Assembly (NCBI GenBank): GCA_030681595.1
Contig: JAUXSB010000036.1
Location: 1-62,016 of the forward strand
Direction: 5' to 3'
Origin: Candidatus Omnitrophota bacterium
GTDB taxonomy: Bacteria; Omnitrophota; Gorgyraeia; Ghiorseimicrobiales; Ghiorseimicrobiaceae
DNA: 62,016 nucleotides
Shown here one piece after another: positions 10,919 to 31,800 of the stretch. The notes under the pieces were generated by a model. That model made no database searches, was not told where the DNA came from, and saw only the letters and a list, made by a program, of their open reading frames with translations. The position numbers were made by a program, and so were the translations under genes. How positions within the stretch are numbered: the stretch's first letter is position 1; every line of letters begins with the position of its first letter.

Positions 10919-10934
10919 TTTTTCCTCTCTTTTT

Positions 10935-12365: not shown

Positions 12366-12430
12366 AGTATCCTCGTTTTCTGCCTAGGGAAGGCATTATC
12401 AGCGCCGAACCCTAAACCGCTTTCGGCAAC

Positions 12431-12850: not shown

Positions 12851-12897
12851 ATCGGCCCAAAATGAAATAAAGCATAAGAATATAATTTAAAACCGTG

Positions 12898-13476
12898 CTA
12901 ATCTGCGCTGAATACGCTTAAAACCAGCGTCACATTGCGTTTTAAGATATCTTTTGTATCTGGTACTATAGTAAGTTCGTCTATCCTAAAAAACCTGTCC
13001 GACTCTTCAATCCGCGCCAAAAACCCTATAAGCTCCCTGTAACCTGCCTTCATCGTGATATTTACGGCATGTTTATACATTAACACCGTGCCTTCTTTAT
13101 TATCCGCCTTCACCGGCTCGGGCGTAAGGCTGGGCCTAATAGAAATAAAATCAACGGCCAATTGTTCGGCTACATGGCTAAGCTTTCCCAGGAAAAAAGT
13201 TATATCTCTCTTCCAAAACAGCCTTTCTTTGCTTTGGGTTATCTCTTGGCTTAAGGTTTCTATCTGTTTTTCCATCTCGGCGTATTGCCTGCGGTAACCC
13301 GAGGCGTCAGGTGCTATCTTTTCCCCTTTTCTAATTTTCGAATTTAACGAAGATAGTTCTTCAACCAGCGGTATAAATATAATGAAAAACCCAATCACCA
13401 AAGCCAAAGCGGCAAAGGCAACTATACCTATAACTATGTATTCCTGCTTTAATGCGCTTTTTTTTGTCAGATACAT
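12898..13476 (-). CDS. pilO: PilO-like pilus assembly protein
   Basis: 192 aa. Single TM, coiled-coil, C-terminal ferredoxin-like region. Gene order is pilN-pilO-pilP-pilQ. Confidence 0.6.
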   Translation of the reverse strand: MYLTKKSALKQEYIVIGIVAFAALALVIGFFIIFIPLVEELSSLNSKIRKGEKIAPDASGYRRQYAEMEKQIETLSQEITQSKERLFWKRDITFFLGKLSHVAEQLAVDFISIRPSLTPEPVKADNKEGTVLMYKHAVNITMKAGYRELIGFLARIEESDRFFRIDELTIVPDTKDILKRNVTLVLSVFSAD

Positions 13477-13512
13477 TCTTTAAATACAGGCAAACCCCGC
13501 TAGATTAATCCG

Positions 13513-14166
13513 TTATTTGATTACCAGGCTTATTTCAAACGCCATTATATCTACCTTAACCCTCTCTACCCTGCCAATCCTTCCCGAAGGGTCGCTGTAT
13601 CCTGCCTCAATATCGCTTTTTTCTAATTTGGTAACCTGACTTATCAAAAGGTCGTTAAAATCAGAGAAAAACTCCTTGTCCTGCTTCATTTTACTAACAA
13701 AAGCGCTTAGGGTGTTTATGGGGGCTATGTTTTCTATGGGCACAAGAAACCCTTTTAAGTTTAAAGCCTCTTTTTGTGCGCCTCTTTGACCCATCCTTAC
13801 AAAACTTATTGCGCTTAGCCCCACCTCTGGCGGCAGAAACGCGCTTATCTGTTTAAGCTTGCTTGACCAAACAAGCCCGCTGGATAAATACCCGCTCAGG
13901 CCGGCTAATTCCTGCTTAAGGCTTACCTGCCTTTTCTTTAAATCTTCTATATTTTCCGACAATAAATCCGATTCTTTCACTTTATCCATCATTTTTGCTA
14001 AAACCTTACCTTCTCTGGCAATCTCAATCCGTATAACAAACCAGACCAGAAAAAACAACAGTATTAAAGAGCCCAGCACCAGCGCCGTTTTACGGATAAG
14101 CAGAATAAGCTCTCCGCTTAATGCCGCAGGGGCTAAATCCGCAGGAAGAAGGTTTATCTTCTGCAC
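13513..14166 (-). CDS. pilN: PilN-like pilus assembly protein
   Basis: 217 aa. The hallmark N-terminal INLLP motif (MQKINLLPADL) followed by a TM helix and coiled-coil. Confidence 0.7.
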   Translation of the reverse strand: MQKINLLPADLAPAALSGELILLIRKTALVLGSLILLFFLVWFVIRIEIAREGKVLAKMMDKVKESDLLSENIEDLKKRQVSLKQELAGLSGYLSSGLVWSSKLKQISAFLPPEVGLSAISFVRMGQRGAQKEALNLKGFLVPIENIAPINTLSAFVSKMKQDKEFFSDFNDLLISQVTKLEKSDIEAGYSDPSGRIGRVERVKVDIMAFEISLVIK

Positions 14167-16484: not shown

Positions 16485-16498
16485 CTATTTGTCTCCCG

Positions 16499-16575
16499 CT
16501 TCAAGCTCCAAGCCGTATGTTTTAAGCCTGAAGCTTGCGGCTTTGGCTAATTGGAAGCCAAACCACTGCCCTCTG
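16499..16575 (-). repeat. two adjacent word hairpins: a CAAGC/GCTTG type, plus a GGCTTTGGCT..AGCCAAACC unit related to the terminal tandem repeat
   Basis: cttcaagctccaagccgtatgttttaagcctgaagcttg, followed by ggctttggctaattggaagccaaaccactgcc. Compare ggctttggctaagcggaaagccaaaccattgcc at 61909-62016. Confidence 0.75.
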
Positions 16576-16589
16576 GCTTGCGGCTATGA

Positions 16590-18428
16590 TTACTCGCTCA
16601 ACCCAAGCCATTGGGTGCCGTTCCAAATTAATTCCAAAACATCATCATTGTCCAACGCCCTGTTAGCTCCTATATCAACATTGCCGCCGTTTTGTACAGT
16701 TATTGGATCCAACAGGCTTAGATCTTTACATCTTAAGATTAAAAGGTCTCCCTGACTTTTTCCATTTTCCAGAGTAATAGTTTGGTCACTACCGCTTATA
16801 TTATTAAGAATAATGTGGCTTGACGGCGAATACACCGGAGATCCTGAAGTTTTGCCTGCCGGATATACTATTTGGCCGCTGGCTGTTATATCAACTGTTA
16901 TCGGCTCAAAGGTGATTTTTTCCTTGCCGGTATATTTTGTGTTTACACCCAAGTCGTCTATCTTATTTGTGGCAAATGCTGCACCGGTTATATAATTAGT
17001 TACCAGGTAATTATTGTCGGAATTGGAAGGAATCTTTATCCCATATCCTGTGCCGACAGAATCATAGATTAAATTTCCGGAAATCAAATTATTATCATAC
17101 TTATCGTCTGCTGCTCCTGATGCCCCATCCACGAAAATACCATTGAAAGCGCCTGTTTGGCCATTATCATAAAGCGCGTTTCCGGAAATAAGCTGGCCTA
17201 CTCCGGCGTTAAACAAGATACCCTCATGCCGGTTATTGGCAATCACGTTATTGCTGATTATTGAATAATTGGGAATTTTCCCCCATGGCGAATCAGGAAG
17301 CCCCGGATTAACATCTTTATCCCCCCATAAAGCAATCCCTTCTCTTGCGCCGCCGGTTACAGAGTTTCCAGATACAATAGAACGGTCGCCATCAGCCCAG
17401 ATGCCGCCGGTCTTATTAGCGGAAACAATATTATTAGAAATTATATTGTTCGTGCCCGCGTCCCAAAGAGAGGCATATATTTCAGATGGATCATCTTCTG
17501 GAGCTCCGCCAACATCTCCACCAATGAGTATATTATCGGAAACAATGTTATTCTGCGAACTTCGTCCGAGATACAGTTCACCCTCGCTGCAGCGGCTAAT
17601 ATAGTTATGAGAAACGATGTTATTGCTGGAAGTGCCGACCAGCTCAAGGCCATCGGCGTTTTCGCTAGGATTACCCAAATCAATATGTGCGTTACTAATA
17701 ATATTATTGTTGGAGTTCGTACAATAAATACCCGCTCTGCCGCCTTGCGTGCCTCTTATCCAAACTTTATCAATTTTAGAGTAAGTTACGTTATCAAAAT
17801 ATATACCGGCGGATTTCGTCTCGCTGCCGTCAAGCTGAAGTTGAGAGATTAAAAGATTACTCGCCGAGGTAGCGTTGATAATGTAGTATTGTGTTTCGGC
17901 GGCACTTCTTTTTTTAAGTATTGTCCCATTGCCTGCGCCAATCAAGGAGATATTGTTTCTATTTAAAATAATCCCCGCGTTATCTTGTGTCTGGCCTGAT
18001 TGCATAGTAATATCGTAAGTGCCTTCTAACAAATATACTGCGCCGCCTGAGGCAGGACAAGCGGCAATTGCCGCATTAATCTTTACCTGATCATCCGTGC
18101 CGGTACATTGATAAGACGCCTCTGCCTTGTTTTTATCTAAAGAGTCGCTGGCGGCGACAATGATAGTGGCGACGTTCATAGGAAGAGCGATGGTATTCCA
18201 TTGGGCCGCGTCTGAAATATATACGTCATTCTCGGTAGTATCATAATAAATCTGGCCTTCCGGGCCGGCGGGGCTAGGGGCACTTGTCTTTGGCGTTAAA
18301 TATAAGCTAGGCGTATCTATGTCGCCGTCAACGGATAGCTTCTGGGCAAAGGCAGAAGAAACACTGCCGGCAACCACTAACCAGTAACCAGTAACCAGTA
18401 AAATTGTTGTTAGTCTATTTAGCTTCAT
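16590..18428 (-). CDS. secreted right-handed parallel beta-helix repeat protein, paralog 2
   Basis: The ORF is open to 18455, but MKLNRLTTILLVTGYWLVVAGSVSSAFA (start 18428) is a typical signal peptide. Blocks SYQCTGTDDQVKINAAI, VYLLEGTYDIT, LIGAGNGTIL, LLISQL, NNIISN repeats, TKYTGKEKITFE, and a C-terminal GDLLILR...LIWNGTQWLGL. Confidence 0.8.
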   Translation of the reverse strand: MKLNRLTTILLVTGYWLVVAGSVSSAFAQKLSVDGDIDTPSLYLTPKTSAPSPAGPEGQIYYDTTENDVYISDAAQWNTIALPMNVATIIVAASDSLDKNKAEASYQCTGTDDQVKINAAIAACPASGGAVYLLEGTYDITMQSGQTQDNAGIILNRNNISLIGAGNGTILKKRSAAETQYYIINATSASNLLISQLQLDGSETKSAGIYFDNVTYSKIDKVWIRGTQGGRAGIYCTNSNNNIISNAHIDLGNPSENADGLELVGTSSNNIVSHNYISRCSEGELYLGRSSQNNIVSDNILIGGDVGGAPEDDPSEIYASLWDAGTNNIISNNIVSANKTGGIWADGDRSIVSGNSVTGGAREGIALWGDKDVNPGLPDSPWGKIPNYSIISNNVIANNRHEGILFNAGVGQLISGNALYDNGQTGAFNGIFVDGASGAADDKYDNNLISGNLIYDSVGTGYGIKIPSNSDNNYLVTNYITGAAFATNKIDDLGVNTKYTGKEKITFEPITVDITASGQIVYPAGKTSGSPVYSPSSHIILNNISGSDQTITLENGKSQGDLLILRCKDLSLLDPITVQNGGNVDIGANRALDNDDVLELIWNGTQWLGLSE

Positions 18429-18490
18429 CTCTGCCTCGTTTTTAACGCATAACACACTTGCCCGCCGAAGCTTTGTGGCGGGTAGCGCGG

Positions 18491-20371
18491 CTAATTATCC
18501 GCATGGACCAACTCAAGCCATGCCGTGCCGTTCCAGATAAACTTTGAGGTAGTGTTTTTGCTCCATGTCCGGTTATTATCACTACCGCGAATCTCAAAAT
18601 TACTACCGCATATTGATTCATCTCCCACTCTGATAGAATAAGACGATGTGTTTTCTATAATGAGCAGGTCGCCTAATGCCTTGCCGTCATCAATTGCGGC
18701 AAGGCCGGGAAGGGGTAGCGTAGGATCGCCTAGCGTAACATCTGCGCTTCCGTTAACACTTAACCGAAGATAAGTTACTGGACCGGTGCCGGTAGAAGAA
18801 AGGTCAATTTTGCCCCCATTAACAACGGTATAAGTAACCGGCTCAAGGGTAATTTTGTCTTTACCGGTGTATTTGGTGTTGGTGCCGGAGTCATTTATTC
18901 TTCTATCGTATCCGCTACCAACGTATCCTGCGCCGTCAATATAATTGCCTGTAAGATAATTATTAGCACTTTCGGGAGAAACAATATATACGCCATACTT
19001 GCCATTAGCGCCGCCTGCGGCTTTATATATCCGGTTGGAAGAAATCGTATTATCATCAATTCCCGACTCAAGCACAATACCAAAATAGTTCGGCTCGTAA
19101 ATAATATTTCCGTAGATTGAATTACTACCGGCGCTTGACCTCCAAATATAAACCCCAGAATTTCCTGCTTCCTCTATAATATTATTATGGATCAAGTTGT
19201 TCTTAGCATATTCAATCAGAATACCCTGACCCATGGTATCTGTATTGTTAAATTTAATTATATTGCCGGAAATAATATTGTTATCGCAAGGGTAGTATGT
19301 AGAAGGGGCGAGATAATAAGCGAGGAGCTTAATGCCGGTTGCGCCGCCGGTAGTCATATCAATGGAATTATTAGAAATAACGTTACTGGTAGTAAGTTGA
19401 AGAAAAATACCGGTTGAGCCTACCCCCCCAATGGTATTGGCAGAAACAGTATTGTTTGTGCTGGCTGGCGGGTTAGCCATGCTGCCGTAGATTAATACCG
19501 CGAAGCCATTGCTGTAAAACACATTATTATGAATAGTGTTATTGGAAGATCCGACAAGAGATAACCCATTATTATTATTATAAAAATGATTATCGCAGAC
19601 AATGTTCATATTAGAAGAGGAAATAATTACAGCTTGATCTCCTCCGCCAAGTATATTTTCTACCCATACCGCGCTAATCTTAGAATTGGTTACACCGCTA
19701 AAAGACATACCTGTATTAGTACCCCCAAAATCGCCACTGCCGTCAATTCTAAGCTGGGAAATAAGAATATTACTGATATTACTTGCTTTAATAACGCCGT
19801 CTATGCCTTCGAGAACTTGTTTTAGCACTGTGCCTGCGCCGGTGCCGATTAGGGCCTTACCGGAATCCGTGGTGCCACTGGCACCGGTATTATCAAAATT
19901 TATCGAGCCCGATATATTATAAGTCCCTTCCAAAAGATAGATTACTCCCGGTATCTTATTACCTGAAGTATCCACTAATGAATCTATGGCCGCATTTATC
20001 TCGGCTTGGTCGTCTGTGCCGTCACAGATGTAATCCGCGGTTTTATTGGTAAGCCGGGAATCTAAAGCCGGAACTGCGGGGTTGCGAGTTACCCCCACAA
20101 TCCTTGAAGCAATGGTTTTGCCGCCAGCGACTGCATCCCAGCCTGTGCCGTCGGAAACATAAACTTTGTCATTCTGGTAAACCACTCTTCCGCCAGTTCC
20201 GTCTCCCTTTTGAGCGGGAGAAGTTGTTTGCTCAACAAAAGTCGCGGTCTCCGTCTTAAGCTTTCCGCCACTTTCAACGGCAAGGTCGGCGGAAAACAGA
20301 GGAACGAATGACGAAAGGAGAAAGACGAAAATAAAAAATACGCTTGTGCTAATTGATTTACCCGCTTTCAT
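18491..20371 (-). CDS. secreted right-handed parallel beta-helix repeat protein, paralog 3
   Basis: The ORF is open to 20437, overlapping the upstream gene. MKAGKSISTSVFFIFVFLLSSFVPLFSA (start 20371) is the likely signal peptide. Blocks ADYICDGTDDQAEINAAI, VIYLLEGTYNIS, LIGTGAGTVL, ILISQL, TKYTGKDKITLE, and a C-terminal GDLLIIEN...FIWNGTAWLEL. Confidence 0.8.
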   Translation of the reverse strand: MKAGKSISTSVFFIFVFLLSSFVPLFSADLAVESGGKLKTETATFVEQTTSPAQKGDGTGGRVVYQNDKVYVSDGTGWDAVAGGKTIASRIVGVTRNPAVPALDSRLTNKTADYICDGTDDQAEINAAIDSLVDTSGNKIPGVIYLLEGTYNISGSINFDNTGASGTTDSGKALIGTGAGTVLKQVLEGIDGVIKASNISNILISQLRIDGSGDFGGTNTGMSFSGVTNSKISAVWVENILGGGDQAVIISSSNMNIVCDNHFYNNNNGLSLVGSSNNTIHNNVFYSNGFAVLIYGSMANPPASTNNTVSANTIGGVGSTGIFLQLTTSNVISNNSIDMTTGGATGIKLLAYYLAPSTYYPCDNNIISGNIIKFNNTDTMGQGILIEYAKNNLIHNNIIEEAGNSGVYIWRSSAGSNSIYGNIIYEPNYFGIVLESGIDDNTISSNRIYKAAGGANGKYGVYIVSPESANNYLTGNYIDGAGYVGSGYDRRINDSGTNTKYTGKDKITLEPVTYTVVNGGKIDLSSTGTGPVTYLRLSVNGSADVTLGDPTLPLPGLAAIDDGKALGDLLIIENTSSYSIRVGDESICGSNFEIRGSDNNRTWSKNTTSKFIWNGTAWLELVHADN

Positions 20372-20417
20372 TGCTACATCCTTTGTTCTATTAATTTTTC
20401 GCTTTTCATTTTTAATT

Positions 20418-21311
20418 TTACTGTATCCCCACCCCACCCATGGTACTTGTGCCCGCGCCGGATATGGTGACTGAACCAGTGATAATACTTCTATTTAAAC
20501 CTGTGTTGCGCGAGGCATCGGTAAAATTATAGCTGTATCCGCCTTTAATAGTTACGCCTTGGCCGATAGTAACGTTTTCCCATGTCAAGGTTTCTGCGGA
20601 AATCCTAATCTCATGGTCATTGGTTGCCGCGGTAAGATTATCTACCGCTGATGGCGACTCAAGCGGAGAATCAAGCGTATCATGCAACCTTTCTATTTCC
20701 ACAAAAGCCCTTGTCGCCGGGATTACCTTTACCAAAGCCAGCGATTTTATTCTGGCGAGCTGGGTTAAAGTTACCTGGTCCTTAATGCTACCGTCGCTAT
20801 TATATACTTTGCCCGTTGACCTTACCCAAAGGCGACCCGGGACAAAAGTATTAGCACTAGCTACGGTCTTACCAAATGCTATCTTCACCGTATACTTACC
20901 GACAGAATTTGCCGCATCGGGAAAATCCACATCAACATAAAAATCTTGGTAATCAGAACGGATATCGCTGGGGTCATCCGGGTCTGTGCCGGCGGAAGAC
21001 GGACTAGGCACTGCGGCGGCCACCCTATTAATCTTATTGTTAGAATTAGCTACGGTGCCGTTAGCCGCGCCGCCTGTCCCATCTGCCCAGCTTTTATCTT
21101 TGTCATACTCGCAGGATAAATCAATAAACGCCTGCTCAAGGCCGGCTCTGGCGATATATTCAGCAGAGCCTGTAGCCATTTCATGCTCCGCTCTCTTGCG
21201 CTCGCTGATAGTCATCGCCACATAGGCGGTCAAAAGGGCGCTTACCATCGTTACTACGATGATCGCCATAATTAACGCCATACCCTTATTGTTCTTTCTT
21301 GGTTTATTCAT
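20418..21311 (-). CDS. PilX-like minor pseudopilin
   Basis: 297 aa. N-terminal KGMALIMAIIVVTMVSALLTAYVAMTI hydrophobic helix typical of the PilX_N domain. Lies in a pseudopilin gene row. Confidence 0.6.
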   Translation of the reverse strand: MNKPRKNNKGMALIMAIIVVTMVSALLTAYVAMTISERKRAEHEMATGSAEYIARAGLEQAFIDLSCEYDKDKSWADGTGGAANGTVANSNNKINRVAAAVPSPSSAGTDPDDPSDIRSDYQDFYVDVDFPDAANSVGKYTVKIAFGKTVASANTFVPGRLWVRSTGKVYNSDGSIKDQVTLTQLARIKSLALVKVIPATRAFVEIERLHDTLDSPLESPSAVDNLTAATNDHEIRISAETLTWENVTIGQGVTIKGGYSYNFTDASRNTGLNRSIITGSVTISGAGTSTMGGVGIQ

Positions 21312-21389: not shown

Positions 21390-22058
21390 TTAGTTCCTAA
21401 AATCCACCCTTGCGGACATGGGTACGCTCAAAGCGGGAATATTACCCCTTTGCATTGCTTTGCTTGCGATTACGGTTATGGTCAAAGAATTTCCGGATAA
21501 GGTAAACTGTACACTGCTAATATCGTTGGCTAAAATCCTTCTTTTAGATATATCCAGGCCTCCTCCTGACGAAAAATTATCCCTGATAAACTGGTTTGGT
21601 TTACTGTCAGTACCTACATAATACTTAAGCTGGCCGTTTAGGTTAGTCCCAGATTCGCCTCCATCGCCCCAGACAATATTGCCTAAAGCATCTATCCCTT
21701 GAGACCCCTTTAGCGGTATCATAAAAGCTATTTCGCTTACCAAAACACCCTCTGAAAAAGGAACATTATAGGCAGGGGGCGGGCTAGGATTCAACGTAGC
21801 GGTATCGTATACCCGCGCCTTGCTGGAAAGGCCAAGCTCGCCAACCATCTTACTTAAGGCCTGATTTGCCTGCGCGGAAAGATAAGCTTTAGTAGTACCC
21901 ATACTCAGCGAGATATCATAAATACGCATTGCGCCGAAGGTAACGCCGGAAACAATGGTGAGGATAGAAACGGTCACCAGAATTTCCATAAGAGTAAATC
22001 CTCTTCTTCGTTTAGCGTTTAGCGTATAGCGTATAGCGTATAGTAAAGAATAAATCAT
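21390..22058 (-). CDS. pseudopilin with prepilin-type N-terminal cleavage/methylation domain
   Basis: ...AKRRRG/FTLMEILVTVSILTIVSG is the class III signal peptide (G|F, Glu at +5). It has an unusually long 20-aa leader, MIYSLLYAIRYTLNAKRRRG. Confidence 0.8.
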   Translation of the reverse strand: MIYSLLYAIRYTLNAKRRRGFTLMEILVTVSILTIVSGVTFGAMRIYDISLSMGTTKAYLSAQANQALSKMVGELGLSSKARVYDTATLNPSPPPAYNVPFSEGVLVSEIAFMIPLKGSQGIDALGNIVWGDGGESGTNLNGQLKYYVGTDSKPNQFIRDNFSSGGGLDISKRRILANDISSVQFTLSGNSLTITVIASKAMQRGNIPALSVPMSARVDFRN

Positions 22059-22063
22059 TTTAC

Positions 22064-23623
22064 CTACTCTCTCCCCAAATAAACCTGTGACGGATAGCCC
22101 CGGCTAGCAAGTATCCCGGTAACGTGCACCGGCGAATCTAAAAAGCCGTTTCCGTTAACGTCTTCTGTTTCCGCGCCGGCTCCAAAAGTATCCAATCCGC
22201 CATTTAATGCCTTAGGCAAATCTTCACTGGCATATCCTTGCTTGCCATTGTCTTCGCCGATAATTCTTCCTTTGTTATCCCGAAAAGCGACCGTGATATC
22301 TACCTGATACATCCGGTCCGCGCCGTATGACATCCAATTATTCCCGGTAACTCCGCCGCCGAGTATCCAAAGCCTGCCATAAAAAACAACCGCGTCAAAG
22401 CCACCGGCTGCCCAGGAAGGAACAGCGGAAAGAATCCATTTTATACCATCCGAGGAATACCAAATTTGCCTAAGGTTAGTAGCGCCATCATTACCGCCGA
22501 CAACCCAGATTTTTCCGTCCAAGACAACCGCCCGATGCATGTATCTCGGGATCCAGGCAGCGTTGGCTACCTGCGTCCAGCTTACCCCATCTGAAGAATA
22601 CCAAACATCATTAAGATAACCGCTACTGCCCTTACCGCCTAAAACCCAGATTTTGTTATCAAAGACCACCGCGGCATGATGATATCTCGCGCTCCAGGCA
22701 GCGTCGGCAACCCGTGTCCAGGTCGCTCCATCTGAAGAATACCAAACATCATTACGGTAGCCGCTAGTATCCCGGCCGCCGAATACCCAGATTCTCCCAT
22801 CATATACAAGTGCGGTATGCCCGTCTCGCGCGGTCCATCCTGCGTTAGAAGTTTTCGCATACCATGCCTGCTTGCCATCAGCTAAATCGGCATCACTAAC
22901 CTCCGGCGTATACCAGACATCATTTAACAGGTTTCCCCAGCCCATATCGCCGCCAAGAATAAAAATTCCATTATCAAAATTCACGGCGGGAAAAGAGAAT
23001 CTGCCGGGCCATATGCCTGAACCCAGCGGAGTAACATCAAAAACTAAGGTTTGCACCCAAGCCCAAGTCTTAGCATCGAAATAATGACGGTTATCATAAA
23101 CGATACCGCACTCATTGCCGCCAAGTACCCAGATTTTTGCACCGGTTGTGCTATCACCTTGCGTTACTACAGCGGCGGGATTATAAATATAGGCATCAAC
23201 AGTAAGATTCGGGCCTGCTGTCCAGGTATCATAAATATCCGTAAGCCTGATATTCCCCATGGCGTATTTATTATTTGCGCTATCGCGCAGTGGAAAAATC
23301 CGATTTATATAGAGCATCTCTGCCGTGTCTCCGTCGCCGTCAATATCAGTTACGTCCATTTGATTTGTATCATACCAATCAAAAAGCTTGCGGAAATTCA
23401 TTGCCCGCATTTCCTCCAGCTTCGCCTTTGCTGCCTGTAAAACTGTGGATTGCTTCTGGGTAGTTTCGCTTAAATTTTGGGTAACATTAAAAGAAGTTAA
23501 TGTGGCGGTAAGAAAAACGATCAAAATACCCATAGAAGCAAGGGTCTCAACGAGGGTAAAACCGCTTCTTCGTTTAGCGTATAGCGTATAGCGTATAGCG
23601 TATAATAATAGGCCCGCAGTCAT
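22064..23623 (-). CDS. pseudopilin carrying a large Kelch-type beta-propeller insertion
   Basis: Leader MTAGLLLYAIRYTLYAKRRSG/FTLVETLASMGILIVF (prepilin motif). Then about six Kelch-like blades, e.g. DGRIWVFGGRDTSGYRNDVWYSSDGATWTRVADAAWSARYHHAAVVFDNKIWVLGGKGSSGYLNDVWYSSDGVSWTQV... Asp-rich loops DIDGDGD and EDVNGNGFLD. Confidence 0.8.
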   Translation of the reverse strand: MTAGLLLYAIRYTLYAKRRSGFTLVETLASMGILIVFLTATLTSFNVTQNLSETTQKQSTVLQAAKAKLEEMRAMNFRKLFDWYDTNQMDVTDIDGDGDTAEMLYINRIFPLRDSANNKYAMGNIRLTDIYDTWTAGPNLTVDAYIYNPAAVVTQGDSTTGAKIWVLGGNECGIVYDNRHYFDAKTWAWVQTLVFDVTPLGSGIWPGRFSFPAVNFDNGIFILGGDMGWGNLLNDVWYTPEVSDADLADGKQAWYAKTSNAGWTARDGHTALVYDGRIWVFGGRDTSGYRNDVWYSSDGATWTRVADAAWSARYHHAAVVFDNKIWVLGGKGSSGYLNDVWYSSDGVSWTQVANAAWIPRYMHRAVVLDGKIWVVGGNDGATNLRQIWYSSDGIKWILSAVPSWAAGGFDAVVFYGRLWILGGGVTGNNWMSYGADRMYQVDITVAFRDNKGRIIGEDNGKQGYASEDLPKALNGGLDTFGAGAETEDVNGNGFLDSPVHVTGILASRGYPSQVYLGRE

Positions 23624-23633: not shown

Positions 23634-23674
23634 AAAATAAAAATGCCATCTGCCGAAGAATTCTAGCAAATGGC
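23634..23674 (-). terminator. intrinsic terminator forming the expression platform of the riboswitch candidate
   Basis: Minus strand: GCCAUUUGCU-(10-nt loop)-GGCAGAUGGC followed by AUUUUUAUUUU, immediately before the SD AGGAG (23629-23633) and the ATG at 23623. Confidence 0.65.
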
Positions 23675-23694
23675 TTCTTGTGTGCATTGCTTCC

Positions 23695-23780
23695 TTCGGC
23701 AATTCAGCCATCCGCCAACGTACTGTGGTGGATCTGTAATTTTGCGCCCCCTGATTACTCAGGGTTTGCCTTTTCGAGAA
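23695..23780 (-). promoter_or_regulatory. candidate c-di-GMP-I (GEMM-I) riboswitch aptamer
   Basis: Minus strand: AAAAGGCAAACC CUGA-GUAA-UCAG GGGGCGCAAAAUUACAGAUCCACCACAGUACGUUGGCGGAUGGCUGAAUUGCC. It has the GGCAAACC core, a 4-bp helix capped by a GNRA tetraloop, the GGGRCGCAAA junction and a second bulged helix, as in the V. cholerae Vc2 aptamer. Confidence 0.65.
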
Positions 23781-23808: not shown

Positions 23809-23837
23809 AGTATAGCATATATTTTATAACTTTACAA
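23809..23837 (-). promoter_or_regulatory. sigma70-type promoter of the riboswitch-controlled operon
   Basis: Minus strand: TTGTAA - 17 nt - TATACT, ~25 nt upstream of the aptamer core. Confidence 0.5.
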
Positions 23838-23995: not shown

Positions 23996-25210
23996 TTAAT
24001 GCCCTAACTTCTTAATAATCTCCAGGATCGGCAAAAACATCGAGAGGGCAATCGTGGCAACTATGCCTCCCAAAAAAATGATTAACAACGGCTCTATTAA
24101 AGACATTAAAGCCCCGATAGCCGCATCCGCTTCACTTTCATAAAAATCCGCGATTTTATCCAACATCGGCGAAATACTACCCGTTTCCTCCCCCACCGTA
24201 ATCATATCTACAACCAGGGGGGCAAAAACGCCCTTGCCTGAGGCTTTAAGCGAATCACCGATTTTTTCACCCCGCGAAACCCGGGCCCTGGCACCCATAA
24301 GCCCTTTTTCTACTACCATATTATCAGCAGTTTTGGCTACTATTTCTAATCCATTAATGATGGAAATACCGCTCTTAACCAAGGTGGCCAAGGTGCGGGC
24401 AAAACGCGCGATCACTACCTTAAGGATAATATTGCCGAACACCGGCGTCTTTAAACACGCCCTATCAAAATTATAGCGGCCGGTTTCGCTACGGACATAC
24501 AGCCTGAGGGCAATAACAATCGCGGCTATCGCTGCCAAAAGATACGGATAAAACCCGCGGATAAGATCGCTTATCTTAATTACTATCTGCGTAGGCAGCG
24601 GCAGTTCGATTTGCAGGGAAACAAACATCTCCCGAAACGATGGGATTACTTTAATAAAAATAAAGGATGTGATTAAGACCGACATAGCAACTACTATCGC
24701 CGGATAAATTAAAGCCCCCTTCAATTTACGGGCGAGCTTATCTATTTCTTCTAAGTAACCGGCCATTTTTTCTAAGATCAAATCCAAGGCACCCCCCATC
24801 TCGCCGGCCTTGACCATATTGACATAGATAGAAGAGAATACGCGCGGATGAGCCGCCATTGCCTCAGAAAGGCTGCGCCCGGATTCAATATTAACCTGCA
24901 GGGAGTTAACCATCTTTTTTAAAGTCTTGTTTGTTACCTGATCATGGATAATGCTTAATCCTTTAACTAGAGGCACCCCGGCTTTAACCAGTGTGGCAAG
25001 CTGGCGAGAAAACACTACCAGCTCATTTAGCTTTACCCCTTTTTCTCTGCTAAGAAAAGACATGCCTTCGGCTTTTATTTCGTTAACAGAGACGATTGTT
25101 ACCGGCTCCTTTCTTAAAAAAGAAATGACGCTGGCACGATCGCGGGATTCTACTTCGCCTTGAATACGCTGGTTTTTGACATTAATAATACTATATTTAA
25201 ACTTGGACAT
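23996..25210 (-). CDS. pilC: type IV pilus / T2SS platform protein PilC (GspF family)
   Basis: 404 aa. Duplicated GspF domains and three TM segments. Motifs LATLVKAGVPL and LATLVKSGISI. Confidence 0.9.
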   Translation of the reverse strand: MSKFKYSIINVKNQRIQGEVESRDRASVISFLRKEPVTIVSVNEIKAEGMSFLSREKGVKLNELVVFSRQLATLVKAGVPLVKGLSIIHDQVTNKTLKKMVNSLQVNIESGRSLSEAMAAHPRVFSSIYVNMVKAGEMGGALDLILEKMAGYLEEIDKLARKLKGALIYPAIVVAMSVLITSFIFIKVIPSFREMFVSLQIELPLPTQIVIKISDLIRGFYPYLLAAIAAIVIALRLYVRSETGRYNFDRACLKTPVFGNIILKVVIARFARTLATLVKSGISIINGLEIVAKTADNMVVEKGLMGARARVSRGEKIGDSLKASGKGVFAPLVVDMITVGEETGSISPMLDKIADFYESEADAAIGALMSLIEPLLIIFLGGIVATIALSMFLPILEIIKKLGH

Positions 25211-25211
25211 T

Positions 25212-26840
25212 TTATCCTTCCGGGGTTACCCGCATAATCTCTTCTACGGCGATTTCTCCTTTTAAGGCCTTCTCTATGGCGTCCTCTCTTAGCGTGCGCA
25301 TGCCGTGCGCGCGGGCGTAAGCTCTGATTTCATCTAACGGTGCCCTCTTTAATATCATCTGCCGCACAACATCATCCACGCTTAACGCCTCCACCACAGC
25401 AACCCTTCCCAAATAACCGCTCTTATTGCAGGCATCGCAACCCGCCCCGCGATAAAGTACGACATTTTTCTCTAAAACAAACGCCGATAAGCCGGCAATG
25501 CTTCCGGTGGGAACCTCATACGGCTCTTTACATTTTACGCAGATTTTACGCGCCAAGCGCTGGGCCGCGACTAAAATTAAAGTGGAAGCAATAAGAAAAG
25601 GCTCAACCTTCATGTCCATAAGCCGCACTATCGCGCTGGGCGCGTCATTAGTATGCAGGGTGCTTAAGATAATATGCCCTGTCAGGGCTGCCTTCATTGC
25701 TATGTCCACAGTTTCATAATCACGAATTTCTCCGACCATTATTACGTCGGGGCTTTGCCTCAATACCGCCCGAAGGGCCGCGGCAAAATTAAGGCCGATA
25801 TCCGGTTTTACCTGTATTTGCGTCAACCCTTTCATCTGGTATTCTACCGGGTCTTCAACGGTAACTAAATGTTTGTGGGGAGTATTTAGCCTGCCCATAA
25901 TGGAATAAAGCGTGGTAGATTTTCCTGAACCGGTGGGGCCGGTCAAAAGAATCATCCCGTATGGCTTGCTTGCTGCCTCTGTAAATGCCTCCAGCGCGTA
26001 AGTAGAAAACCCCAGCCTTCCTAAATCCATAGACATGCTGGTTTTATCCAAAATCCTTAAAACTGCCTTCTCCCCGAAATGAACGGGTAAAATGGATACG
26101 CGGAAATCCACCTCCTTGTCTTTTAATTTTAAAGAGAACCTGCCATCCTGCGGCGTGCGCCTTATGGTTATGTCTAAACCCGACACAATCTTAATCCTGG
26201 CAATGATAGCCGCGGTATTCTCGCGAAATAACGGGGTACGTTCCTGCATAATACCGTCTATACGGAACCTTAAGCGCAACACATCCGAATACGGCTCTAT
26301 GTGAATATCACTTGCGCGTAAATCAATCGCATCTTTAACAATATTATTAACCATGTTGACTATCGCGGCGTCTTGGCTAACCCTGATTATTTCTTTAATA
26401 TCAAGGCCCTCCTCATCAACAGCGGCAGGCTTCCAAATAAGCTCAAGCTCTCTGTCTTTCTTAAGCGTTTCCTCGCCGATTAACAGGTCTATTACCAAAG
26501 AGCTATAATAATCATCCTGCGATTTTTTGATTTGAGGGGCGGTAGCCACCACCGGCTGGATATTGCACTTGGTAATAATCTTGAGGTTATCCAGCACAAA
26601 CACTTCAAAAGGGTCCACCATTGCAACAGTCAAAACCATCCCCATTTTTGCCAAAGGCATAATGCGGTAACTGCGCGCGAGATGTTCGGGAACAGCCTTT
26701 AAAACATCCGTGTCTACTTTATATTTAGCCAGATTTATCGGGGGGAAACCAGAATCTTCAGAAACGGCGATTAATTCCCTCTGTTCTTCGGAGACCTCTT
26801 GTAAATCAACAGCTTTTGGTTTTTTGATTCCTTCTTTCAT
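25212..26840 (-). CDS. pilB: type IV pilus assembly ATPase PilB (GspE family)
   Basis: 542 aa. T2SSE_N-type N-terminal domain, Walker A GPTGSGKST, Asp and His boxes, and the C-terminal CxxC..CxxC cluster (CVKCKEPY ... CDACNKSGY). Confidence 0.9.
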   Translation of the reverse strand: MKEGIKKPKAVDLQEVSEEQRELIAVSEDSGFPPINLAKYKVDTDVLKAVPEHLARSYRIMPLAKMGMVLTVAMVDPFEVFVLDNLKIITKCNIQPVVATAPQIKKSQDDYYSSLVIDLLIGEETLKKDRELELIWKPAAVDEEGLDIKEIIRVSQDAAIVNMVNNIVKDAIDLRASDIHIEPYSDVLRLRFRIDGIMQERTPLFRENTAAIIARIKIVSGLDITIRRTPQDGRFSLKLKDKEVDFRVSILPVHFGEKAVLRILDKTSMSMDLGRLGFSTYALEAFTEAASKPYGMILLTGPTGSGKSTTLYSIMGRLNTPHKHLVTVEDPVEYQMKGLTQIQVKPDIGLNFAAALRAVLRQSPDVIMVGEIRDYETVDIAMKAALTGHIILSTLHTNDAPSAIVRLMDMKVEPFLIASTLILVAAQRLARKICVKCKEPYEVPTGSIAGLSAFVLEKNVVLYRGAGCDACNKSGYLGRVAVVEALSVDDVVRQMILKRAPLDEIRAYARAHGMRTLREDAIEKALKGEIAVEEIMRVTPEG

Positions 26841-26843
26841 TTA

Positions 26844-26990
26844 CCCCGTTAGAGATAGCCCCGAAACTTCGGGGTGTCTACTCTTCGTAATCCTGCTGAT
26901 AAAATTTATGCTTCTATAATCACCAAACCCCGCTTGCTATGAAGAAAAGCGTTATCCCCGCCAGACTGAAGTCGGGCTGGTCTAACGGGG
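26844..26990. mobile_element. MITE-like element copy b
   Basis: 147 bp. The left module CCCCGTTAGAGATAGCCCCGAAACTTCGGGGTGTCTA is nearly identical to copy a. The right end is GGTCTAACGGGG (10-bp inverted repeat). It fills the whole spacer between the MshE-like ATPase stop (26992) and the pilB start (26840). Confidence 0.6.
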
Positions 26991-26991
26991 T

Positions 26992-28212
26992 TCATTTAGT
27001 AGTTACCCTTACCACCTCTTCCATTGTAGTTATGCCCCCCGCCGCTAAGCTCACCGCGATCTCCCGTAAAAGAATCATCCCTTCTTCCCGGGCGCACTTA
27101 CGGATTTCTGATTCGGGAGCGTTAGAGATAATGAGTTTCCTGATATTGGGGCTTACTTCCATAGTTTCTGCCAAGGCGACCCTGCTTTTATATCCGGTAT
27201 TATTACATCCAACACAGCCTTTGGCTTTATACAGCTGCGACACCTCTTTTATTCTCGGGTTTTCCGCTTTAATTCCGGCGGCCACCTCCATGGATACCGG
27301 ATACGGCTCTTTGCATTCGGAACAAAGCGTCCTCAATAAAACCTGGCAGGAAATTAAAAGGCAGGACGAGCTAATCAGAAAAGGTTCCACCCCCATGTCT
27401 CTTAGCCTTATCATGGCGCTGGAGGCAGAGGTGGTATGCAGAGTAGAAAGCAAAAGGTGCCCGGTTAAAGCCGCCTTAACCGCGATATCCGCCGTCTCAG
27501 AATCGCGAATTTCTCCGATAAGAATAATATCGGGGTCCTGTCTTAATATTGAGCGAAGCGCAGATACAAACGTAAGCCCGATGCTCTCCTGAACCGCCAC
27601 CTGATTTATCCCGGATAATTCATATTCAATCGGGTCTTCAACAGTAAGGATATTGGTCTCGACTGAATTAATAAAATTTATTGCCGAATAAAGCGTGGTA
27701 GTTTTGCCGGAGCCTGTCGGGCCGCAGACTAAAATCATGCCGAACGGCTTAATTAGGTTGCGCTTAAATAAAACGAGTGTCCTCTCATCAAACCCCAATT
27801 TATTTATATCTAAAATTATCTTTGATTTATCCAAGACGCGCAAGACTATCTTTTCCCCCATGCTCGTAGGAACTATTGAGACGCGGAAATCCACATCACG
27901 CGCCTGAAACTGCATACGGAACCGCCCCTCCTGCGGCAGGCGGTGCTCGGCAATATCCAGGCCTGCCATTACTTTAATGCGGCTGACTATGCCCGAATGG
28001 AATGAAACCGGCAGAGTTATACGCTCATAGAGGATGCCGTCTATCCTATAACGAATCCTCACCGCTTCAGGGTCCGGTTCTATAAAAATATCACTGGTTT
28101 TCTGGTCTATACCGAGAGCTAAAATTTTGGTCACCGCTTTTACCGTTGGCCCATGCGCAACTATGGACTTAGAAATATCCTGTTCAAGTTTTTTAGATTC
28201 CTCCTGCTCCAT
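26992..28212 (-). CDS. GspE/MshE-type secretion ATPase lacking its N-terminal regulatory domain
   Basis: 406 aa. Walker A GPTGSGKTT, Walker B/Asp box, His box, tetracysteine CSECKEPY ... CVGCNNTGY. The start ATG overlaps the end of the upstream MshEN ORF by 20 nt and has its own SD, AGGGAG. Confidence 0.88.
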   Translation of the reverse strand: MEQEESKKLEQDISKSIVAHGPTVKAVTKILALGIDQKTSDIFIEPDPEAVRIRYRIDGILYERITLPVSFHSGIVSRIKVMAGLDIAEHRLPQEGRFRMQFQARDVDFRVSIVPTSMGEKIVLRVLDKSKIILDINKLGFDERTLVLFKRNLIKPFGMILVCGPTGSGKTTTLYSAINFINSVETNILTVEDPIEYELSGINQVAVQESIGLTFVSALRSILRQDPDIILIGEIRDSETADIAVKAALTGHLLLSTLHTTSASSAMIRLRDMGVEPFLISSSCLLISCQVLLRTLCSECKEPYPVSMEVAAGIKAENPRIKEVSQLYKAKGCVGCNNTGYKSRVALAETMEVSPNIRKLIISNAPESEIRKCAREEGMILLREIAVSLAAGGITTMEEVVRVTTK

Positions 28213-28651
28213 AATTCTCCCTTTGCGCCTTCTTTAATTCTGAAGGCGTAGTAACAAAAATTTTTATCTTCAGGCCCAGGGCTTCCTCTAAGCCCTTAAG
28301 CGAATCTTCATCTAGCGGGTTTAACATCGCCACGGTAAGAATGTTGCCTATCCTGTCTACGGGCATGATATTAAATTTTTCGGCGCTTTCTTGAGGAACG
28401 AGCGTTAGGGTTTCCTCATCGATAGAACAGTTGGCAATCTTGATATAGGGATAGCCCAATTGCATTGCCAAAGCGCTGTAAATTTCCTCCTCGGTGACAT
28501 AACCTAAATCGCTTAAGACTTCGCCTAAAACCTTCCCCTTGCACTTGGTGCGCTGCAAGATTAATGCCTCTTCCAGGCGTTCTTTAGTAATTACGCCTTT
28601 TTCTAAAAGGAGTTCACCAAGCCGGGTTTTTAATCTTCGTTTTGGCGGCAT
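28193..28651 (-). CDS. stand-alone T2SSE_N / MshEN domain protein (predicted c-di-GMP receptor)
   Basis: 152 aa. RLGELLLEKGVITKERLEEALILQ matches the MshEN motif RLGxx(L/V/I)(L/V/I)xxG(L/V/I/F)(L/V/I)xxxxLxxxLxxQ exactly. A second, degenerate copy follows (VLGEVLSDLGYVTEEEIYSALAMQ). Confidence 0.75.
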   Translation of the reverse strand: MPPKRRLKTRLGELLLEKGVITKERLEEALILQRTKCKGKVLGEVLSDLGYVTEEEIYSALAMQLGYPYIKIANCSIDEETLTLVPQESAEKFNIMPVDRIGNILTVAMLNPLDEDSLKGLEEALGLKIKIFVTTPSELKKAQRENYGAGGI

Positions 28652-28662
28652 ATCTTATGGGC

Positions 28663-28816
28663 ACATAACTTACGAACATATGGTGCAGTAAGTTATAAGT
28701 GCGAGTTAGGCCCCACACCCAGATACTTCGAAGTATTTCTTCCTTAAGCTGGGTGTGGGGTTAAATTCAACCAGATAAGTTATGCCGCCGTATAATTAGG
28801 CATCCATAACTTATGC
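28663..28816 (-). repeat. cluster of three hairpins (TATAACTTA words; CCCCACACCCAG/CTGGGTGTGGGG)
   Basis: cacataacttac...gtaagttataagtg (28663-28701). A perfect 12-bp stem at 28711-28722/28749-28760 encloses the palindrome atacttcgaagtat. ataagttatgcc...ggcatccataacttat (28775-28816). Confidence 0.75.
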
Positions 28817-28818
28817 CT

Positions 28819-31800
28819 TTATTTAATTTTCCTGCTTAATACTTTTTTTATCAAGAGCTGCATCTCTTTATTTTTTTCAATCTCAAGCAAACCGGATAAA
28901 ACATCGTCGGAATTTTTAGTGCCTATTACGCCCAGCGCTGACACCGCCTGCCGGCGCAACTCTAAATCTTCATGGTAAAGAAACGACTCAATTGCTTCAG
29001 ACAAACCCTCCTTGCCGAGGTAGCCGGCCAACTCCAGAAGAATCGACAGGTTTTCCTTGTTTTTTTCCTCGGACAAATATTTCTTTACTTTAACCAAGGC
29101 TGTCTCGCCCATTTCTTTTAAGACTGCGGCTACGCGTTTACGCATCGCATATCCCTCAAAAGAATCTTTGGCAATTTTCTTTGCGCTTAAGCAGATATCT
29201 AGCAGCGCATCGCAAGAAGCGCTACCTAAAATCTCAAGTAACGCTTTTACCCGTTTAGGCTCAGCCTGAAAATAATCCAAGATAACGGCAACCAGCATCT
29301 CCAAAAAGTTAACCACTTTTAATGTGCTTTGAATAAAGGTTGTTATCGCGCTATATAGGGCGGTATCTTCGGGAGCCTGAGATTTAAGCCTCTTCTCCAG
29401 GATGCTAAAAACCTCGGCAATAAACACCGCGTAATCTTTCCTAGAAGTCTTCTCTACGACCAAATACAACTCTTCCGGCTCCAGGCTTTTCATAAAGTCT
29501 TCGCTTAGCCATTTTATAATATCTAATATTTCGCTATAAACTTTGGGGTCGGCCTCAACCCTTAATATTTCAAGGAACACCTGGCATCTGCTTAAAATAT
29601 GGGTATCTTTACATATAAATTCTTTAATAATTTTGCTTATTTTTTTATGCGTCTCCAGATCGCTGGCTAAAGCTTTAAGCATAAATGATTGAATCAAGCT
29701 TTTAAACCCCGGGGTATCCTGCCCGTAAAACAGCTCTTCCATAAAGGCGCCGACGAGGCTTAAATCAATTGTCGCAAACTCTTCTTGCGGTAAATCGAGA
29801 AGGGCCTTTAACCTTTTCTCTCTCGCAAGCTTATTCCAACCGGACTTGCTACAAAGCGAGCCGACAGTCTCTTTATCCATCCCTAATTCCGTAAGCTTTG
29901 CCTCGACCAACGGCAGGACCTCCCGTTTTTTAGCCGCGGACGGCGTAGCCTTATCAATTAAATCTTTTACCACTAAAGGGTTATCTGAACCCTCGCGGAT
30001 ACTGCGCTCTATAAGGCTGACGATCTCCTGCGCGGAGAGCTTATTGATAATCTCTTCGGTAATGTTTGTTTTATTGGAAGAGGTTATCTGCGGCTTTAGG
30101 CGGATAAACTTAGCCTTCAGTTTCCAGTCCAATTCCTGAATAACCTTAGCTAAATTCTCTACCGCCTCGGAGGCGGCAAGGCGCTCAACAGGAATTTGCG
30201 CGCTGATTTTTTTTATCGTTTCGGCAAGCACATTAATTTCACCGGTTTTATCTTGCTTTCCGCTGGAGGCGGCAATTTTACTTATAGCCTCCGCAAACTT
30301 CCGCGGCTCCTCGGCGATCTTGGAAAGAAAGCTTTTTTTATCCACATCATCGTGGCCGACCTTACCGAGGAGAAACTCCATCATCATCGCGTCTTCAAAC
30401 TTCTTGCGTGGCCCTGCCCTGCCCAAGCTAGATTTGGCAATTTCTTCATAACTAAACTCATCTATCCTGATATGGGCCAGCCTTTTTTCCTGAATAACCG
30501 CCTTCCATATATTCTTATTCGTCGCTGAGCGCCTTGGCTGGCTAAAATTATCTAAAAATATACTTACTTCTTCTTCGTTAATACCCTGAGTAAATGAAAG
30601 GGATTTTATGTTGCTTTCTACCATAAGAGAAATAAAATCTCCTTCGCCTAATTCCTGAATCTCACGCAAAGAAAAACGCCTGCCGTTTATTACAAGGCTG
30701 TTTCCCGATTCGATAATCTCTAATCTCGGCGTATCTTGCAGGATCAACTCCAGGCTATGGTAAATATCCATCACGAAATTGTTGCGTATAGAGCTACCCG
30801 TGGGGTAAAGCTGAAAATTCTTTACCGCCGACTGGGTCAATTTTATCAGCCGGGATATCTCGACTCGCGTCAGCGCAACCAGCTCTAATTTAATCTCTTT
30901 CTCTTCTCCTGTTTTTATTGCTCTGGCGGCAAATTCCTTGAGGTAATCAACGACTTCTGCCGGATTGAATAGATCCGAGGCCCTTTCTTCTAGGAGGCGG
31001 CCGTATTTGTCGGAAATAACTCCGGCGGCGGCCTTTCCAAAATGCAGCGAAAGATCAGCCGCCACATCGGATAAATCATCCTCGTGCTCTGAGGCCAACA
31101 TCTCGCCTATTTTCTGATGCAGGTTTTTTTGCTCTTCTTCGCTTAACTCGTTATACAGCGCGTCCTGTATCCCGCTGCTAATAAAATTAAATTTGCCGAT
31201 TTTCTCCGACTCTTTTACCAAATGCTTCTTCTTCGCCCGGGCCATTACTTCAAATATGTAACCTTCGTTTTTTTCGCCTAATTTTTTAAGTAAATCGACA
31301 CTAAAGTCTTCTCCGATAACCGCTGCCTGCACTATCAGCTCCTTAGTTTCTTTATCCAGCGTCTTTACCCGCCTCTTAATAGTTTCTTCCAATGAATTGG
31401 GTATATCTATTGCCTCAAGGCCCGCGGCCAGGCCCCATCCGTTATCTTTATAAACTAAAAGCTTATTCTCCGCCAGCGACTTAAATATCTCCTCAATAAA
31501 AGCCGGGTTTCCTTTAGTGATCTCAAAAATAGAGTCGCTTAATTCCTTGATTTGTTTTAAGCCGGGGAACATCGCTTCAATCATCTCACGCGTATCGCGT
31601 TTAGCTAAATCCGGTAACGGTATTTCTATGGCATTTTCGCCGTTATGCAGATATTCTAACAACTGCGCAAGGGCGCTTTTTTCTCCCCGCTCAACAACAG
31701 GTTTGCCTTTTAAGGTAGCTATGGCCAATATTTTTCTTTTCTTCTCGTATTTAATGAGGTAATGCAATAATTCTATGCTGGCGTTATCCGCCCACTGCAA

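Follow-up and report, generated by a model that had tools for sequence, protein, structure and literature searches.

Within a 62,016-nucleotide stretch of DNA from a Candidatus Omnitrophota bacterium (GenBank assembly GCA_030681595.1, contig JAUXSB010000036.1; hereafter the window), a minus-strand gene at positions 22064-23623, stop codon included, encodes a protein of 519 amino acids (aa) that we read as a minor pilin bearing a Kelch-type beta-propeller. The gene was delimited from a list of open reading frames (ORFs), Pfam matches and an AlphaFold model, and its ATG start codon lies 5 nt 3' of an AGGAG. It sits among genes for a pilus-like machine, behind a riboswitch of a cyclic di-GMP (c-di-GMP) class, and was compared with its counterparts in eight metagenomic loci, L001-L008.

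The leader peptide (residues 1-21; 23561-23623, minus strand), located by a motif scan, ends in Gly(-1). The prepilin motif that spans this point, G21|F22-T-L-V-E26-T-L (residues 21-28, G|FTLVETL), has the form of a class III signal peptide, in which the glycine at -1 is followed by a hydrophobic stretch of about 20 residues with glutamate at +5. The bona fide prepilin motif claimed in the original prediction is thus present, and it is a property of the family: all eight members tested match the Pfam model N_methyl, and at least 90% of the 46 relatives in the alignment keep Glu5. The 21-residue leader is unusually long and includes a heptamer-repeat segment, whereas that of the L001 ortholog is plain, with 11 residues (MKNEGLRIKKG|FTLVE).

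Residues ~135-432 (22328-23221, minus strand) correspond to a six-bladed Kelch propeller, whose extent was set by Pfam, six GG motifs, Foldseek and its absence from short homologs. Both Kelch matches are above the Pfam cut-offs (PF24681, E 2.8e-40; Kelch_1, PF01344, E 1.6e-21). The motif '[IL]W[IV]xGG' occurs six times, at residues 164, 220, 278, 325, 372 and 418, with a spacing of 46-58 residues. Repeats of ~47 aa, the GG doublet, a conserved aromatic residue (here W) and a predicted closed six-bladed fold, the features that define such Kelch domains, are all found. Blades 3-5 are alike enough for Tandem Repeats Finder (TRF) to detect a 141-nt period at the DNA level. AlphaFold, run on an alignment of 46 sequences, predicts the repeat region as a propeller, with a predicted local distance difference test score (pLDDT) of 83.4 and a predicted template modelling score (pTM) of 0.80; an earlier, provisional run with 9 sequences (pLDDT 64.8) is superseded by this model. 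When the model was compared with the PDB by Foldseek, the top 50 matches were exclusively six-bladed Kelch domains. The best was the Kelch domain of LZTR1 (E 4.8e-19, target template modelling score 0.78, root-mean-square deviation 3.8 Å), and KLHL12/17/20, KLHDC2/3/10 and designed six-blade proteins were also matched. The proposal of six tandem Kelch-type blades therefore stands, but their length, put at about 350 aa, is closer to 300.

The manner in which the propeller closes can be read from its two ends. The segment before blade 1 reads as a fourth strand in most relatives (e.g., 'NWIEAT'), and the chain exits blade 6 after the third strand. From this pattern we infer that the propeller is closed Velcro-fashion, which would bring its two ends next to each other, as insertion into a loop demands.

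The pilin scaffold lies on both sides of the propeller. Its N-terminal half (residues 22-134; 23222-23560, minus strand), as defined by AlphaFold and by alignment to short pilins, comprises alpha1 (24-74), a short helix, beta1 (109-113) and beta2 (119-129). The C-terminal half (residues 433-519; 22067-22327, minus strand) provides ~85 residues of conserved scaffold with beta3 (438-448), Asp/Asn-rich loops, beta4 (499-506) and a C-terminal extension, RGYPSQVYLGRE (…RGYPxQxYLGRE), that is confined to Kelch-bearing members and lacking in short pilins. The predicted fold is that of a pilin, in which a long alpha1 packs on a four-stranded sheet with strands contributed from both sides of the propeller. 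The propeller is covalently part of a pilin, as had been proposed: strands at 109-129 precede it, strands at 438-506 follow it, and short pilins align to both halves.

A homolog search of 5.8 billion proteins with the whole protein returned mainly Kelch-only proteins, together with 8 full-length matches of 31-84% identity. We also built a propeller-deleted query from the two flanks, 114 residues on the N-terminal side (20-135) and 88 on the C-terminal side (432-519), and compared it with 1.84 billion cluster representatives at E<=0.001. Of the 72 representatives matched, about 10 are Kelch-bearing proteins of 344-571 aa. Most of the remainder (~60) are ordinary pilins of 145-200 aa, several of which align unbroken over query positions 1-193. 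In a profile-profile comparison (hhalign), the propeller-deleted family matches a set of 36 short pilins with a probability of 100% (E 1.2e-46, 151 columns). In the joint alignment, the propeller of every Kelch-bearing member falls in a single gap of the short pilins, between beta2 and beta3, bordered by a 'G-x-I...' strand and an 'L-x-V-x-V-x-W-R-Q-x-G-R-I-I-G-E-D' strand. Because the joined halves align end to end with short pilins, the propeller is, by alignment and model, truly inserted into the beta2-beta3 hairpin loop and not appended.

When a neighbour-joining tree was built on scaffold columns only, 11 of 12 Kelch-bearing members fell in one clade, consistent with one or very few insertion events in the history of these sequences. 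Clustering at 50% identity yields ~10 clusters of 1-2 sequences each, which makes this a rare family. The idea that this loop is a hot spot for varied modules was not supported, as relatives at this sensitivity were either Kelch-bearing or uninserted.

Among NCBIfam models, the best matches of the short relatives are gspI, PilV and ComGE, over the N-terminal 50-75 residues and all below threshold; uninserted relatives score 34.1 bits with gspI (TIGR01707) against a cut-off of 44.35, and 32.3 bits with PilV (TIGR02523) against 52.2. The gspI and PilV equivalog models do not match the Kelch pilin itself at E<=0.01. Sequence searches of the PDB with the propeller-deleted scaffold and with the short-pilin profile gave nothing diagnostic, only alpha1 similarity to major pilins, and the same was true of searches with the second and third minor pilins of the locus. 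We therefore describe the scaffold as GspI/PilV-like and do not claim membership in either family. It resembles GspI, PilV and ComGE in its size of ~150 aa without the insertion and in being encoded first in a minor-pilin operon; it differs from them in scoring under the family cut-offs and in having tandem EF-hand-like loops that are specific to the scaffold.

These loops follow the strict motif D-x-[DNS]-x-[DNS]-G-x-hydrophobic-[DNE], which is found in 42 of the 46 relatives; typically, two copies spaced by 12 residues lie between the final pair of strands. The window protein has an intact second copy (DVNGNGFLD, 488-496) and a first copy that is expanded and degenerate. The original prediction had likened two Asp-rich loops to calcium-binding sites. 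One of them, EDVNGNGFLD (residues 487-496), is part of this motif and is conserved throughout the scaffold family, so the likeness holds there. The other, DIDGDGD (residues 93-99), occurs in the closest relatives only and lies in a low-confidence loop of the model. The pseudopilin GspG sets a precedent for Ca2+ in place of a C-terminal disulfide. Given this precedent and the single cysteine of the Kelch pilin, Ca2+ bound in the EF-hand-like loop might stabilize the C-terminal region and so replace the usual pilin disulfide.

All genes in the region 8304-32865 of the window are on the minus strand. In order, they encode a GGDEF-AAA16-HEAT protein, a stand-alone MshEN protein, a PilB/GspE-type ATPase without its N-domain, an MshEN-ATPase and PilC/GspF; a terminator-like hairpin, the promoter and the riboswitch then precede the Kelch pilin, a 222-aa pilin and a 297-aa pilin. 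Three beta-helix proteins follow, and the order ends with a putative PilN, PilO, a T2SSB-like protein, a secretin, a TPR protein and PilM. The machine and regulator genes upstream (GGDEF-AAA16-HEAT, MshEN, two PilB/GspE-type ATPases, one with MshEN, and PilC/GspF) span 23996-32865, and those downstream (from the putative PilN, of 217 aa, through PilM) span 8304-14166, as assigned by Pfam and NCBIfam. The stand-alone MshEN protein scores 63.6 bits with the NCBIfam model c-di-GMP_motif, for which the cut-off is 38, and PilM is also above its cut-off (151.3 versus 133 bits). PilB outscores GspE, PilC outscores GspF, and the secretin scores 253 bits with PilQ versus 234 with GspD.

The second minor pilin (222 aa; 21390-22058, minus strand) carries the motif G|FTLMEIL, matches N_methyl with 29.8 bits and TIGR02532 above its cut-off, and is syntenic in L001-L008. 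The third (297 aa; 20418-21311, minus strand) has a PilX/GspK-like N-terminus without Glu5, recognized through weak matches to PilX_N (E 0.0057) and GspK (E 4.4e-4), and has a syntenic partner in every related locus. Its last ~60 residues resemble parallel beta-helix coils (…VTIGQGVTIKGGYSYNF…IITGSVTISGAGTSTMGG), and the end of its gene shares 20 nt with the beginning of the first beta-helix gene. This beta-helix-like end and the gene overlap hint that the third minor pilin may act as an adapter.

The three beta-helix genes (14631-20437, minus strand) encode paralogous secreted right-handed beta-helix proteins of 648, 621 and 617 aa with Sec signal peptides and matches to Pfam Beta_helix, NosD and Phage_depo_C. 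A phage-depolymerase-type C-terminal beta-sandwich domain is present in two of them (16590-18455 and 14631-16484). Directly after the signal peptide, all three have the motif G-x-I-x-Y...D-x-[VL]-Y-[VI]-x-D-[GA]-x-x-W, which is similar to an Asp-box-like hairpin in the Kelch blades ('DVWYSSDGxxW'). Between one and three beta-helix genes, most with the depolymerase C-terminal domain, are found in L001-L005, and none in L006-L008. Toxin-antitoxin-like pairs (NTP_transf_2 with HEPN/HepT) lie between the beta-helix genes of L003, L004 and L005.

Genes for PilC, the Kelch pilin and two further small pilins are grouped in this way in L001-L008 as well, and the Kelch pilin is the first of the three minor-pilin genes in all related loci but one. 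It adjoins the T2SSF gene in L001, L002 and L004-L008, which is to say wherever the upstream flank was recovered; this flank is cut off in L003, and in L005 the pilin trio is reversed and divergent from PilC. For two further sequences, P0125 and P0152, the contigs were too short to show the surroundings of the gene. In metagenome-assembled genomes labelled Omnitrophota and Planctomycetales, a three-pilin operon of this kind begins with the uninserted scaffold. One pattern scan of a genome collection gave no relative, and another gave at least six loci, in genomes labelled Omnitrophota and Planctomycetes. In L001, two Kelch pilins lie in tandem (10001-11560 and 11857-13380), and they are 47% and 84% identical to the window protein, respectively. 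The first adjoins PilC without a leader region, and the 84% ortholog sits behind a promoter and riboswitch. This organization suggests that the L001 paralogs are alternative tip subunits under separate control. The window genome retains just the riboswitch-controlled copy of this pair.

An aptamer of the c-di-GMP-I class (GEMM-I, Rfam clan CL00126) occupies 23694-23779 (minus strand) and scores 61.3 bits with RF03167 (c-di-GMP-I-GGC), for which the gathering score is 59. It ends 70 nt 5' of the ATG, which bears out the claim that the Kelch pilin is the first gene after a riboswitch. Orthologous aptamers are present in L001 (RF01051, 63.2 bits) and L004 (RF03167, 61.5 bits). The element is thus shared by the window, L001 and L004, a single sub-lineage, and both of its hairpins show compensatory changes. 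Assignment to the 'GGC' variant is marginal; in L001, a near-identical aptamer is classed as canonical c-di-GMP-I. A consensus scan located a sigma-70-like promoter at 23809-23837 (minus strand; TTGTAA-17-TATACT with a TG extension), which is conserved in L001.

Folding predicts an expression platform at 23634-23702 (minus strand) that is conserved with compensatory changes in L001 and L004. It consists of antiterminator strands at 23702-23691 and 23660-23651 and an intrinsic terminator with stem strands at 23674-23666 and 23653-23645 and a U-tract at 23644-23634, all on the minus strand. The segment 3' of the aptamer, UGCCGAAGGAA (in L004, GCCGAAAA), has two alternative pairings. With the 5' flank it would form P1, and with UUCUUCGGCA (in L004, UUUUUCGGC) it would pair across a region that overlaps the 3' half of the terminator hairpin. 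The free window platform adopts the antiterminator fold (-19.7 kcal/mol), and with its first 13 nt sequestered it adopts the terminator (-16.2 kcal/mol). Since the 3' strand of P1 would compete with the antiterminator and the terminator would then form, we infer a transcriptional OFF switch in which ligand binding leads to termination, although this predicted direction is not secure.

Other components of the locus also point to c-di-GMP. The 1348-aa GGDEF-AAA16(STAND-like)-HEAT protein heads the pilus locus (28819-32865, minus strand) and holds the same position in L001, L002 and L005; it is likely a dedicated c-di-GMP source or sensor for the machine. One PilB/GspE-type ATPase is split (26992-28651, minus strand), its MshEN domain being made separately, as a 152-aa protein, from a gene that overlaps that of the ATPase, and the same split occurs in L001, L002 and L005. 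In Vibrio, the MshEN domains of MshE activate pilus assembly at high c-di-GMP, and in C. difficile a c-di-GMP riboswitch precedes pilA1. The present locus resembles these systems in that it combines GGDEF, MshEN (above cut-off) and a c-di-GMP-I riboswitch before pilins. It differs from C. difficile pilA1 in that the riboswitch precedes an operon for minor, putatively tip-located pilins and in that the platform looks like an OFF switch.

Tandem TATACGC heptamers (~5 copies) are found in four places in the window, with 10 matches versus 0.04 expected. Two arrays, at 23571-23604 and 22009-22043 (both minus strand), sit where the leaders of the Kelch pilin and of the 222-aa pilin are encoded. They render the first ~45 nt of the two genes nearly identical and encode LLYAIRYTLxAKRRxG|F. 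The L001 orthologs of both pilins are without arrays. Slippage by one 7-nt unit would change the reading frame, and the two leader arrays form direct repeats that flank exactly the body of the Kelch-pilin gene, through which deletion or duplication could occur. The other two arrays, at 6225-6247 (minus strand) and 6276-6298 (plus strand), form an inverted pair (hairpin) between pyrB-like and pyrC-like genes.

Elsewhere in the window, dnaA and dnaN at 46031-48676, together with a GC skew that changes sign near 48 kb, indicate the presence of the chromosomal replication origin. GyrB (41966-45706, minus strand) is interrupted by an intein (Intein_splicing, E 2.8e-20) that includes an HNH endonuclease domain (HNH_3, E 9.4e-6). 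A 1488-aa ORF (34574-39040, minus strand) has no Pfam match at E<=0.001, and the same is true of a 412-aa ORF (3486-4724) and a 230-aa ORF (33635-34327).

We propose that the Kelch pilin is a modular minor pilin that forms the tip binding head of a c-di-GMP-controlled type IV pilus-like machine and is expressed at low c-di-GMP, and we place the probability of this reading as a whole at roughly 0.6. The structural part by itself, namely that an inserted Kelch propeller makes this protein a modular member of a set of minor pilins, we hold with high confidence. According to the full proposal, a prepilin peptidase whose gene lies outside the window would remove the leader by cleavage after Gly21, and the Kelch pilin would assemble with the second and third minor pilins into a priming complex on the platform. 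The major pilin, also presumed to be encoded elsewhere, would polymerize beneath this complex, which would then end at the filament tip, with the C-terminal region of the Kelch pilin stabilized by Ca2+ in its EF-hand-like loop. The exposed propeller would bind a target through its loop-rich face and so act as a tip adhesin, with a surface glycan or protein of a host or prey, or the co-encoded beta-helix depolymerases, as candidate targets. The OFF riboswitch would restrict expression of the tip operon to low c-di-GMP.

Several observations count against this proposal. The N_methyl score of the window protein itself, 20.0 bits, is under the Pfam cut-off of 21.2. No prepilin peptidase (Peptidase_A24) gene is present among the ORFs of the 62-kb window, and no major pilin gene was found there. 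Sub-threshold N-terminal matches and gene order are all that place the scaffold in the GspI/PilV class. That the protein lies at the tip is an assumption drawn from the analogous GspIJK and PilVWX complexes, and a glycan, a protein and a depolymerase are equally compatible as partners of the propeller. In L001 and L004, folding favours the terminator even without sequestration of the P1 strand, and it is for this reason that the direction of the switch is not secure. An OFF riboswitch would also sit oddly beside MshEN domains if these act as they do in Vibrio.

The same genes might build a type II secretion-like machine, in which the Kelch pilin would cap a short periplasmic pseudopilus ('piston') and not be an external adhesin, its propeller serving to recruit or push beta-helix depolymerases through the secretin. 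We judge this unlikely. One to three genes for Sec-signal beta-helix proteins, most with a depolymerase domain, directly follow the minor pilins in the window and in L001-L005; the locus is devoid not only of a major pilin but also of a PilT-type retraction ATPase, none of which was detected in the window; the GspE, GspF, GspD and GspM models score just slightly under the pilus models; and the three-member minor-pilin set resembles the GspI-J-K core. Nevertheless, PilM is a separate actin-like protein that passes its cut-off, the Pil models for the ATPase, platform and secretin do prevail over their Gsp counterparts, and neither GspC nor GspL is present. Moreover, the Kelch pilin and its partners persist in L006-L008 without beta-helix genes, and so the propeller cannot depend on the beta-helix proteins. 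The absence of these genes from some loci also counts against a display platform, in which the propeller or the C-terminus of the third minor pilin would dock tailspike-like depolymerases at the pilus tip, yielding a phage-tail-like device that recognizes and digests host or prey surface polysaccharide. The frequent co-occurrence of Phage_depo_C beta-helix proteins is in keeping with such a device, as is the precedent of CofB-CofJ, where a tip minor pilin is the adapter for a secreted protein (PMC8179133). In addition, type-4a pili are reported to be nearly universal in Omnitrophota and have been implicated in host attachment, with a host-dependent or predatory life proposed for these bacteria (PMC10066038). 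Gene context is the sole basis for the display platform, and we regard it as doubtful.

Two further possibilities seem to us less probable still. The pilin-like N-terminus might stay uncleaved and serve only to anchor in the membrane a Kelch protein, periplasmic or exposed at the surface, that is no filament subunit, as the N_methyl score under the Pfam cut-off and the lack of a prepilin peptidase in the window would allow; one relative (P0063) is called simply 'kelch repeat-containing protein [Candidatus Omnitrophota bacterium]' by NCBI. We consider this very improbable, since both halves of the scaffold are homologous over their full length to bona fide short pilins, Glu5 is retained across the family, and the gene keeps its fixed place among minor pilins by PilC in eight loci. 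The original prediction had suggested a PilY1-like tip adhesin fused to a pilin, and to homology with PilY1 we give almost no credence. There is a general likeness, in that both proteins are bulky, contain a beta-propeller near Ca2+-type loops and are linked to the tip complex of minor pilins, and a role in surface or host contact may be analogous. However, the PilY1/PilC Pfam domain does not match the Kelch pilin at E<=0.01, and the PilY1 structure is absent from the top 50 Foldseek matches in the PDB, results by which homology was ruled out. PilY1 is not a pilin and has its own, C-terminal propeller family (IPR008707), whereas the Kelch pilin is itself a pilin whose Ca-like loops belong to the scaffold, which also occurs without a propeller. 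The propeller of PilY1 is a docking or carrier module on minor pilins, and its variable N-terminus is the effector (PMC8179133). Because the PilY1 propeller docks and is not the adhesive part, the comparison is reduced to a loose functional analogy.

For a modular minor pilin with a tip binding head, closer parallels are known. Streptococcus sanguinis PilB and PilC carry a vWA and a lectin module, respectively, and a survey of InterPro found >1,200 proteins with 264 architectures, among which IPR012902-IPR006652 (N_methyl and Kelch repeat) is listed once, in Dataset S1 (Raynaud et al. 2021, PMC8179133). Like the S. sanguinis proteins, the Kelch pilin joins a pilin module to a domain that is not peculiar to pili, and its predicted display at the tip would serve ligand binding. 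Their modules, however, are attached at the C-terminus via a short linker, and the definition of modular pilins by C-terminal fusion does not fit the Kelch pilin, whose propeller lies within the beta2-beta3 loop with scaffold on its far side. The module also differs, being a beta-propeller, a fold uncharacterized in any pilin, as does the host, a diderm candidate phylum. The same insertion topology is seen in ComZ of Thermus thermophilus and in GspK of the type II secretion system, tip minor pilins that have a domain inserted in the pilin beta-sheet (PMC8179133), and GspK is likewise one of a three-member minor-pilin set. Their inserts are a beta-solenoid (ComZ) and an alpha-domain (GspK) rather than a Kelch propeller, and here the carrier is a small GspI/PilV-like subunit and not a GspK/PilX-like one.

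A literature search found no paper that combines 'minor pilin', 'beta-propeller' and 'Kelch', and a paper on cable bacteria that names Kelch proteins and pilins concerns separate gene clusters. Pilin-Kelch fusions do exist in sequence databases, as the eight full-length relatives attest, but the single listing of this architecture (PMC8179133) makes the novelty less than the original prediction implied. Modular pilins as a class, the N_methyl-Kelch architecture, and inserted modules in ComZ and GspK are already known. New here are the family as such, the demonstration that the propeller sits in a loop of a GspI/PilV-like scaffold with uninserted counterparts, the conserved locus and the link to a riboswitch.

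The Kelch pilin indicates that a small GspI/PilV-type tip pilin can take a whole propeller of ~300 residues within one hairpin loop. The idea of modular pilins, so far one of modules grafted onto the C-terminus, is thereby widened to the smallest tip subunit and to insertion within a loop. Inserted and uninserted forms of one scaffold offer a natural pair for studying how bulky cargo passes through the pilus machine and secretin. The locus also brings together three layers of c-di-GMP control and depolymerase-like enzymes. A bolder picture, which we consider a long shot, is that the protein is the receptor-binding pilus head of a host-dependent or predatory nanobacterium, acting with or presenting depolymerases, its operon gated by a c-di-GMP OFF riboswitch and possibly phase-varied via the heptamers. 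If this were true, the pilus tip would act like a phage tail that recognizes and digests the host envelope. The protein is of the size of a soluble domain, and its expression and the screening of ligands would be possible without culturing the organism. It thus provides a concrete candidate attachment molecule for Omnitrophota, uncultured ultrasmall bacteria that are suspected of living on other cells.

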